Below, in pieces: positions 10,081-10,179 of a stretch of 11,684 bases of DNA. This stretch comes from a virus (taxonomy: Duplodnaviria > Heunggongvirae > Uroviricota > Caudoviricetes), in IMG/VR virus record IMGVR_UViG_2585427784_000006, one strand, 5' to 3'. The position numbers and the translations under genes were made by a program. Below the pieces are notes generated by a model. The model was given only the letters and a program-made list of their open reading frames with translations. It did not search any database and was not told the DNA's origin. The first letter of the stretch is position 1. Each line of letters begins with the position of its first letter.

Positions 10081-10104
10081 AAAACCCGCTTATAAGCGGG
10101 TTTT
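10081..10104. terminator. Bidirectional intrinsic terminator; tR'-like terminator of the short pR' transcript and terminator for the cspF-like gene
   Basis: Perfect 24-nt palindrome AAAACCCGCTTATAAGCGGGTTTT (10-bp stem, 4-nt loop), flanked by T-rich sequence on both strands. Lies ~40 nt downstream of the predicted pR' start on the minus strand. Confidence 0.7.
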
Positions 10105-10138
10105 CTACTTTTTTCTAAACGTCGGATACACAAAGCCC

Positions 10139-10179
10139 ATCGTTGAGAAAATCTTATCCATGTTTTTTGAAAAATGCAA
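10139..10179 (-). promoter_or_regulatory. Late promoter pR'-like with sigma70 pause element (Q engagement site)
   Basis: Minus strand: -35 TTGCAT (10179-10174), 17-bp spacer, -10 TAAGAT (10156-10151), then TTTCTC AACGATGGG. Lambda pR' as I recall it is TTGACT-17-TAAATT TGACTC AACGATGGG, where AACGAT is the -10-like pause element. Located ~30 bp downstream of the Q gene stop. Confidence 0.6.

Follow-up and report, generated by a model that had tools for sequence, protein, structure and literature searches.

Layout of the cassette downstream of Q

The window described here is a stretch of 11,684 nucleotides (nt) from a Caudoviricetes virus (IMG/VR record IMGVR_UViG_2585427784_000006), and the element in question is a short segment that follows a gene for a Q antiterminator on its minus strand. 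An initial annotation, made from the letters alone, had read this segment as a promoter, a pause element and a terminator in the arrangement of lambda pR'. By megablast, the window is 99.8% identical to chromosomal prophages with the gene order ydfU-ydfT-cspF(pseudogene)-cspB-ynfU-essD-ydfR-rrrQ-rzpQ-cspI, and phage Tritos is 99.5% identical to it across the module. The Q gene (10211..10963, minus strand) is of the ydfT/quuQ type and encodes a protein of 250 residues that is labelled 'antitermination protein' under ydfT in RefSeq and matches Pfam PF03589 (E = 3e-54). Its best matches in the PDB are the Q-lambda loading complexes 7UBM/7UBN (E = 4e-36), the match being split around an insert at residues ~120-160. 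The open reading frame (ORF) upstream of the segment is thus a lambda-family Q and its stop codon (10213-10211) lies 32 nt before the -35 hexamer, so that the module does stand immediately downstream of Q, as had been proposed.

The coordinates and spacings given in the initial annotation were all correct on the minus strand. The predicted promoter, pR', begins with the -35 hexamer TTGCAT (10174..10179, minus strand), which aligns with TTGACT of lambda and is kept in all relatives. It is followed by a 17-nt spacer, TTTTCAAAAAACATGGA (10157..10173, minus strand), a candidate Q-binding element (QBE) by its likeness to the lambda spacer, and by the -10 hexamer TAAGAT (10151..10156, minus strand). 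A 6-nt gap, TTTCTC on the minus strand, then leads to AACGATGGG (10136..10144, minus strand), the predicted sigma70-dependent pause element, which consists of a -10-like AACGAT and a discriminator-like GGG and whose first base, 10144, is the predicted start of transcription. Two overlapping T-N-Y-G motifs at +11 and +13 (10129..10134, minus strand) fit the consensus for elemental pause sites (PMC9191641) and are candidates for that role; in lambda this further pause determinant occupies +14..+17 (PMC9191641). The RNA from +1 to +27 (10118..10144, minus strand) is predicted to form a 5'-terminal hairpin, as judged by its minimum free energy fold and by co-variation across the family, and an A-rich linker, AGAAAAAAGUAGAAAA (10105-10117, minus strand), separates it from a tR'-type intrinsic terminator (10076..10104, minus strand) that is identified by a terminator scan, by folding and by a homologous 3' end from Term-seq. 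The terminator is built on a perfect palindrome, AAAACCCGCTTATAAGCGGGTTTT (10104-10081, minus strand), that begins at +41 and is followed by TGTGCTTT, which supplies the U-tract. Of all terminator-like sites in the scan of the window this hairpin ranked first, in agreement with the strong palindromic terminator that had been placed ~40 nt downstream of the pause element.

Taken together, these features make it very probable that the window holds the late-gene regulatory cassette of a Qin/Tritos-type lambdoid E. coli prophage on the lambda-Q plan, with transcription start, pausing, Q binding and readthrough as predicted steps. As such, the cassette is an ordinary, previously unannotated copy of the textbook lambda Q switch and holds no surprise for a specialist.

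The three families of Q proteins differ in their promoter and pause layouts, so that a window whose Q is of the lambda-Q family is properly compared with lambda pR'. A Q cassette is defined by a Q gene, PR', a sigma-dependent pause element, a terminator and downstream genes, and the QBE of lambda sits between the -35 and -10 hexamers (PMC9388147). In lambda pR', AACGAT occupies +1..+6 and serves as a -10-like element bound by sigma70, a discriminator-like GGG comes next, and polymerase pauses at +16 (PMC4005639). When the two promoters are written without gaps, lambda reads TTGACT-TATTGAATAAAATTGGG-TAAATT-TGACTC-AACGATGGG and the window reads TTGCAT-TTTTCAAAAAACATGGA-TAAGAT-TTTCTC-AACGATGGG. 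The two share the Q protein family, the order of the elements, a spacer of 17 nt, a gap of 6 nt between the -10 hexamer and the start, and an intrinsic terminator that precedes the lysis genes. Bases +1..+9 are identical, with AACGAT followed by GGG as in the lambda pause element, which bears out the pause arrangement of the initial annotation. The spacers agree at 11 of 17 bases, counted by eye because MAFFT had placed an unnecessary gap in this alignment. By contrast, the -35 hexamer is TTGCAT in the window and TTGACT in lambda, the -10 hexamers are TAAGAT and TAAATT, and the terminator lies at ~+65 in the window but at +194 in lambda.

Chance is a poor explanation for this arrangement. AACGATGGG is unique in the window, where 0.11 occurrences would be expected by chance, and the composite pattern is expected only 0.01 times even when up to three mismatches are allowed (found in 1 of 200 shuffles). 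The significance of the cassette therefore lies in the composite, in its position after Q and in its conservation, rather than in the hexamers alone.

In the mechanism that we propose, pR' would act as a constitutive sigma70 promoter just past the Q gene and start transcription at ~10144 on the minus strand. Region 2 of sigma70 would then re-bind the non-template AACGAT (with GGG next to it), which would cause the polymerase to pause after ~13-17 nt; a pause near +13 to +15 is plausible, since the T-N-Y-G motifs start at +11 and +13. Without Q, the polymerase would resume, stop at the hairpin and U-tract and release an RNA of ~65-69 nt. With Q, the protein would bind the promoter spacer, load onto the paused complex and confer resistance to terminators. 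The modified polymerase would then continue through the cspF remnant (antisense), through cspB and its terminator (sense) and through ynfU (antisense) before it reached the holin, lysozyme and Rz genes.

The Q protein itself differs from its lambda counterpart, having 250 residues and a four-CXXC, DnaJ-like arm where lambda Q has 207 residues and a single zinc ribbon, with an identity of ~33-41% between them. Alignment with lambda Q places a Cys-rich insert of ~40 residues in the zinc-ribbon "arm", which gives rise to the four CXXC motifs, and the protein also matches Pfam PF00684 (DnaJ_CXXCXGXG). The resulting DnaJ-like, two-zinc module spans residues ~115-195; in lambda Q, the single zinc-ribbon arm touches the QBE and sigma region 4. 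Long-arm Q proteins are widespread, occurring in SF6, HK225, Erwinia phage 49, Klebsiella and Yersinia phages and many prophages. The geometry of their promoters is nonetheless that of lambda.

Conservation, leader length and the K-12 3' end

We compared the cassette with two sets of relatives. The close set comprises 80 viral contigs whose Q is 95-100% identical to that of the window and is useful for following variation in cargo and loops, not for deep comparison. In these contigs the block from -35 to ~+27 is almost invariant, including the spacer, and AACGATGGG is present exactly once in 76 of the 80. The position of the terminator is also kept. Its stem, CCCGC/GCGGG, is invariant while the loop varies (TTATAA, TGATAA, TGATGA, CGCTGA and others), and in some close relatives a different stem-loop, CCTCGC-TTCG-GCGGGG, stands at the same place. 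Since the place of the hairpin is kept while its loops vary or the whole stem-loop is exchanged, selection appears to act on a terminator and not on one particular sequence. The block that runs from the end of Q to the hairpin recurs in Tritos, SfV, Ayreon, mEp460, 2H10, Stx2c-converting phages and the Qin prophage of K-12, whatever cargo lies beyond it, and the depositors of SfV, Ayreon and HK225 had annotated the hairpin as a terminator.

The diverged set was drawn from a profile scan that kept one genome per species and yielded 80 loci from ~60 enterobacterial species, with Q identities from 99% down to 36%; dereplication and the addition of phage loci gave a survey set of 72 unique cassettes. 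Nearly all 72 have a promoter followed, 5-7 nt past the -10 hexamer, by a hexamer of the form.A...T that is usually succeeded by GG, and AACGATGGG itself is found in most of the diverged cassettes. The spacer retains A at -21/-20 and G at -15 across the family. A terminator was found in 71 of the 72, and the predicted leader has a median length of 64 nt with an interquartile range of 61-68. Long leaders, as in lambda (194 nt), SF6 and a few others, are exceptional, and P22, HK97 and HK225 already have the short form. The initial annotation had remarked that the predicted RNA is much shorter than the 194-nt 6S RNA of lambda. That is so, at a predicted ~65-69 nt, but it is no peculiarity of the window, because a leader of ~64 nt is the norm of the lambda-Q family and the lambda RNA is the outlier. 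The survey thereby corrects a lambda-centred view, in which the unusual form stood for the common one.

Two further comparisons frame the window. At the late promoters of P22 (gene 23), HK97 and HK225, AACGATGG(G/A) stands at the transcript start and the leader, at ~56-64 nt, is as short as in the window; HK225 also shares the long-arm Q. Their promoter spacers and terminator sequences are unlike those of the window, however, and they lack the csp cargo between terminator and holin. The Qin prophage of K-12 is much closer, with the orthologous genes ydfT/quuQ-ynfS-cspF-cspB-ynfU-essQ-ydfR-rrrQ-rzpQ in the same order, the same cargo and ~93-95% identity over the module. It differs in its -10 hexamer (TAAAAT), in its hairpin loop (GATG) and in having kept an intact cspF, ynfS and ~260 base pairs (bp) that are deleted in the window. 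The module is unannotated in K-12 and in the window genome alike. A literature search for a published description of the Qin late promoter gave nothing specific, and comparative work on Stx pR' omits the sequence.

The K-12 module bears directly on the predicted RNA. In MG1655 its predicted start is at 1,642,422 on the minus strand and its predicted end near 1,642,360. At 1,642,356 on the minus strand, where no feature is annotated, Adams et al. 2021 (Supplementary file 1) list an "orphan" Term-seq 3' end, which appears in at least two of their condition lists, with scores of 103,591 and 55,368. The sequence that flanks it, ...AAAACCCGCTGATGAGCGGGTTTTGTGC, is the homologous hairpin with its U-tract, and the position corresponds to C10076 of the window. 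An RNA begun at the predicted start would be 67 nt long in K-12. No plus-strand 3' end is listed around the homologous hairpin in the same supplement. We conclude that the tR'-type terminator of Qin is active in vivo and explains the K-12 "orphan" 3' end. For the ~65-nt minus-strand RNA ending near 10080 that had been proposed for the window, there is thus a 3' end on record at the homologous U-tract.

The predicted minus-strand RNA, taken over 70 nt, has a folding energy of -21 kcal/mol (z = -2.6), and in the predicted fold a 5' hairpin (AACG/CGUU plus GGG/UCC) is followed by the A-rich linker and the terminator. A search of the leader against Rfam returned no family at the gathering threshold, and its matches at E<=10 were all sub-threshold and terminator-like.

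Placing a late promoter, a pause site and a terminator in this segment extends the annotation of Qin-type prophages, which are found in ~30% of complete E. coli genomes, K-12 among them. The 146-bp module occurs in 1603 of 5426 such genomes and in none is it annotated beyond ydfT.

Alternative explanations

Several observations weigh against a working lambda-type switch at this locus. The pR' hexamers match the consensus at 8 of 12 positions in their best register, and TTGCAT-17-TAAGAT was not among the promoters listed by a generic promoter scan of the window. Upstream of the lambda pause element, a -35-like TTGACT helps sigma region 4 in the loading complex; the corresponding segment of the window, TTTTCT, matches it at 4 of 6 positions. 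The T-N-Y-G motifs begin at +11 and +13 in the window as against +14 in lambda, 1-3 nt closer to the pause element. Moreover, as the four-CXXC arm is longer than the arm of lambda Q, the contacts of the window Q with DNA may differ from those of lambda. No coordinate near the predicted start is found in the Cappable-seq (PMC4782308) and Kim 2012 supplements, the files of which are possibly incomplete, so that the short RNA proposed for the window is matched by a homologous 3' end but by no start-site record in these data. Finally, in an ORF of 661 residues (2000-3985, minus strand) the ATPase domain of a terminase large subunit, at residues 40-263, is joined to a capsid-protein domain of phage type at residues 363-658. 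This fusion points to an internal deletion of the portal/head region and hence to a defective prophage, in the host of which the switch may never be thrown.

We considered three other accounts of the same features. The hairpin might mainly be the terminator of the convergent cspF gene, or a bidirectional terminator shared with it, with the promoter-like sequence and AACGATGGG as non-functional remnants. The palindrome is indeed perfect and has T-runs on both sides, the generic scan listed the hairpin on the plus strand, the plus-strand RNA also folds well (z = -3.2), and in the window only a few nt separate the hairpin from the end of the cspF remnant. That closeness, however, is due to a secondary deletion of ~260 bp. 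In K-12 the hairpin lies ~290 nt past the cspF stop codon, with ynfS in between, which assigns it to the Q module, and Term-seq lists a 3' end there on the minus strand but not on the plus strand. In phages that lack cspF (SfV, Ayreon, the Stx2c phages, HK225 and P22), a terminator stands equally far from AACGATGG, and in the window cspF is itself a pseudogene. On the synteny with K-12 and the strand of the Term-seq end we reject the hairpin as a cspF terminator, and we regard this explanation as a whole as extremely improbable. It is scarcely more probable that the K-12 3' end, and with it the homologous element of the window, marks the end of a quuQ mRNA made from upstream early promoters, with no active promoter between Q and the hairpin. 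The 3' end could belong to such a longer transcript through quuQ, given that Term-seq yields 3' ends only, that the hexamers are sub-consensus and that the start-site supplements list nothing here. Yet the non-coding DNA around the block formed by -35, -10 and AACGATGGG is much less conserved than the block itself, which also matches lambda pR'. That promoter is known to be constitutive, and pR' promoters in general are constitutively active in lysogens (PMC7547250). The Term-seq signal (~1e5), moreover, exceeds that of hokD in the same list, which would be unexpected for the silent early operon of a cryptic prophage. The conserved promoter block and the strength of this signal make an origin by read-through from quuQ unlikely.

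The remaining account, which we hold to be unlikely, though less so than the other two, supposes that the switch is a fossil: Q would no longer be expressed, only the constitutive leader of ~65 nt would be made, and this would have been retained as a small regulatory RNA similar to StxS. The collapsed morphogenesis region, with its terminase-capsid fusion, speaks for it, as do the presence of the 146-bp module in 1603/5426 complete E. coli genomes and the abundance of the 3' end in uninduced K-12. There is also a precedent in StxS, a by-product of pR'-tR' that binds Hfq and regulates rpoS (PMC7547250), and the leader has features in keeping with such a role, namely two hairpins, an A-rich, (ARN)n-like linker that resembles Hfq distal-face motifs, and a U-tail. 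Yet among relatives no part of the leader is less conserved than the linker between the hairpins, which speaks against a conserved seed, and both Q and the lysis genes are intact. Together with the near-identical cassettes of the complete phages Tritos and PhiR42_1, this intactness allows the conservation of the cassette to be explained by the switch itself. A retained leader RNA would in any case add to the lambda-type Q switch, which we still consider the best explanation, rather than exclude it.

The likeness to StxS of Shiga-toxin phages (PMC7547250) extends to the general plan. In both cases transcription from the late promoter in lysogens yields a short RNA that ends at tR', constitutively so for StxS and by prediction in the window, and in both cases cargo lies between tR' and the lysis genes, stx in the one and csp in the other. 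The two differ in that RNase E cuts the 258-nt primary transcript of StxS down to 74 nt, and in that Hfq binding and targets have been shown for StxS only.

The leader 5' end and the downstream genes

Comparison of the leaders points to a second feature of the family. In most members of the lambda-Q family, the transcript opens with 4-9 nt that have their complement in a segment at ~+19..+27, and the pause element and its partner vary in step: AACGA is paired with TCGTT, AATGA with TCATT, AACAA with TTGTT, AACGG with CCGTT, TAGTG with CACTA and AAGGATGG with TCGTTCTT. In a chimera test, exchanging the 9-nt heads between classes worsened the fold in 19 of 27 classes (class-level Wilcoxon P = 0.0008). 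When the helix was named explicitly in an alignment of 21 sequences, 90.5% of the cells could pair, three of the five pairs were changed on both sides, and the covariation score was reached by none of 500 shuffles; these 21 sequences were picked after the pattern had been seen, and the classes are not phylogenetically independent. The co-variation of the pause element with ~+19..+27 suggests a conserved RNA hairpin at the 5' end of the transcript. Other results are less favourable. A class-level test for exact reverse-complement 4-mers was not significant for the 5' hairpin (P about 0.08), because the register of pairing differs between classes; RNAalifold returned no consensus helix for the short 5' stem; and one locus of the survey, L137, is a counter-example to the pairing. 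We put forward only tentatively, as something that may well prove wrong, the general proposal that across the family the pause-element RNA (+1 to ~+9) is kept complementary to ~+19..+27 and that every late transcript opens with a 5' hairpin.

Such a hairpin goes unmentioned in the papers on pausing and Q that were consulted, PMC9388147 and PMC9191641 among them. If it is under selection, the Q switch, or the stability of the late mRNA or leader, would have in it a component so far unrecognised. We can speculate that it shields the 5' end from RppH and RNase E, or that, after the 5' end of the RNA has passed through the Q nozzle, it serves as a stopper. If the proposal is true, the two-hairpin RNA of ~65 nt of Qin-type prophages, present in ~30% of E. 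coli genomes, could act in trans as a small RNA.

Beyond the terminator, the late transcript would cross three cargo genes. The cspF-like gene (9834..10074, plus strand, antisense to the late transcript) is labelled 'frameshifted; incomplete' in RefSeq; compared with K-12 it has a 1-nt deletion that shifts the frame and a 3' deletion of ~260 bp that has taken its last codons and ynfS. The same ~260-bp deletion also takes a second minus-strand Term-seq 3' end of K-12 (1642188). The cspB moron (9304..9696, minus strand; coding sequence 9320-9535), sense to the late transcript, is identified by annotation, by the Pfam CSD domain and by its Rfam leader, a full-length cspA-type thermoregulator (RF01766, 158.8 bits), and it has a terminator of its own downstream. 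This intrinsic terminator (9019..9038, minus strand in the terminator scan) is common to cspB and the convergent ynfU, a zinc-ribbon ORF (8786..8956, plus strand, antisense to the late transcript) that is recognised by annotation and by Pfam PF23499 (YnfU). The orientations that had been assigned to cspF (plus), cspB (minus), the zinc-ribbon ORF (plus) and the holin gene (minus) were confirmed throughout; what had passed as a cspF-like gene is a frameshifted, truncated pseudogene.

Having its own thermoregulated leader and its own terminator, cspB is probably an autonomous moron, and coupling to Q would be additive: Q-dependent readthrough would be superimposed on the regulation of cspB and would not replace it. 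If Q is ever made, cspB expression could be boosted and that of cspF and ynfU could be opposed by antisense transcription. A cspA-type leader (RF01766, 112.8 bits) is also present at cspI (6407-6792, minus strand), and by virtue of these leaders both cspB and cspI would keep a host-like post-transcriptional control.

The slot between tR' and the holin gene is a general cargo site in lambdoid phages. It is occupied by cspF, cspB and ynfU in the window, Tritos and Qin, by methylase-like and other ORFs in SfV and Ayreon, by tRNAs in Klebsiella and Yersinia phages, and by almost nothing in P22 and HK97. A Stx2c-converting phage carries ORFs there, followed by tRNA-Met and tRNA-Arg. In Shiga-toxin phages it is stx that lies between tR' and the lysis genes (PMC7547250); cspB, cspF and ynfU thus occupy the classic place for cargo.

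The lysis cassette that follows (7010..8565, minus strand) is intact, lies on the same strand as pR' and matches Pfam families PF04971, PF07041, PF00959 and PF10721. By these matches and by annotation, it consists of a P21-type holin gene (8350-8565, minus strand), ydfR/DUF1327 (8034-8345, minus strand), the lysozyme gene rrrQ (7504-8037, minus strand) and the Rz-like rzpQ with an embedded Rz1-like ORF (7010-7507, minus strand). Near the other end of the window, a full-length match to Rfam IS009 (RF02111, 226.7 bits; 723-921, minus strand) lies inside a tail-fibre assembly gene (689-1270, minus strand), and this gene is adjoined by a gene for a Pin-like invertase (1-591, plus strand).

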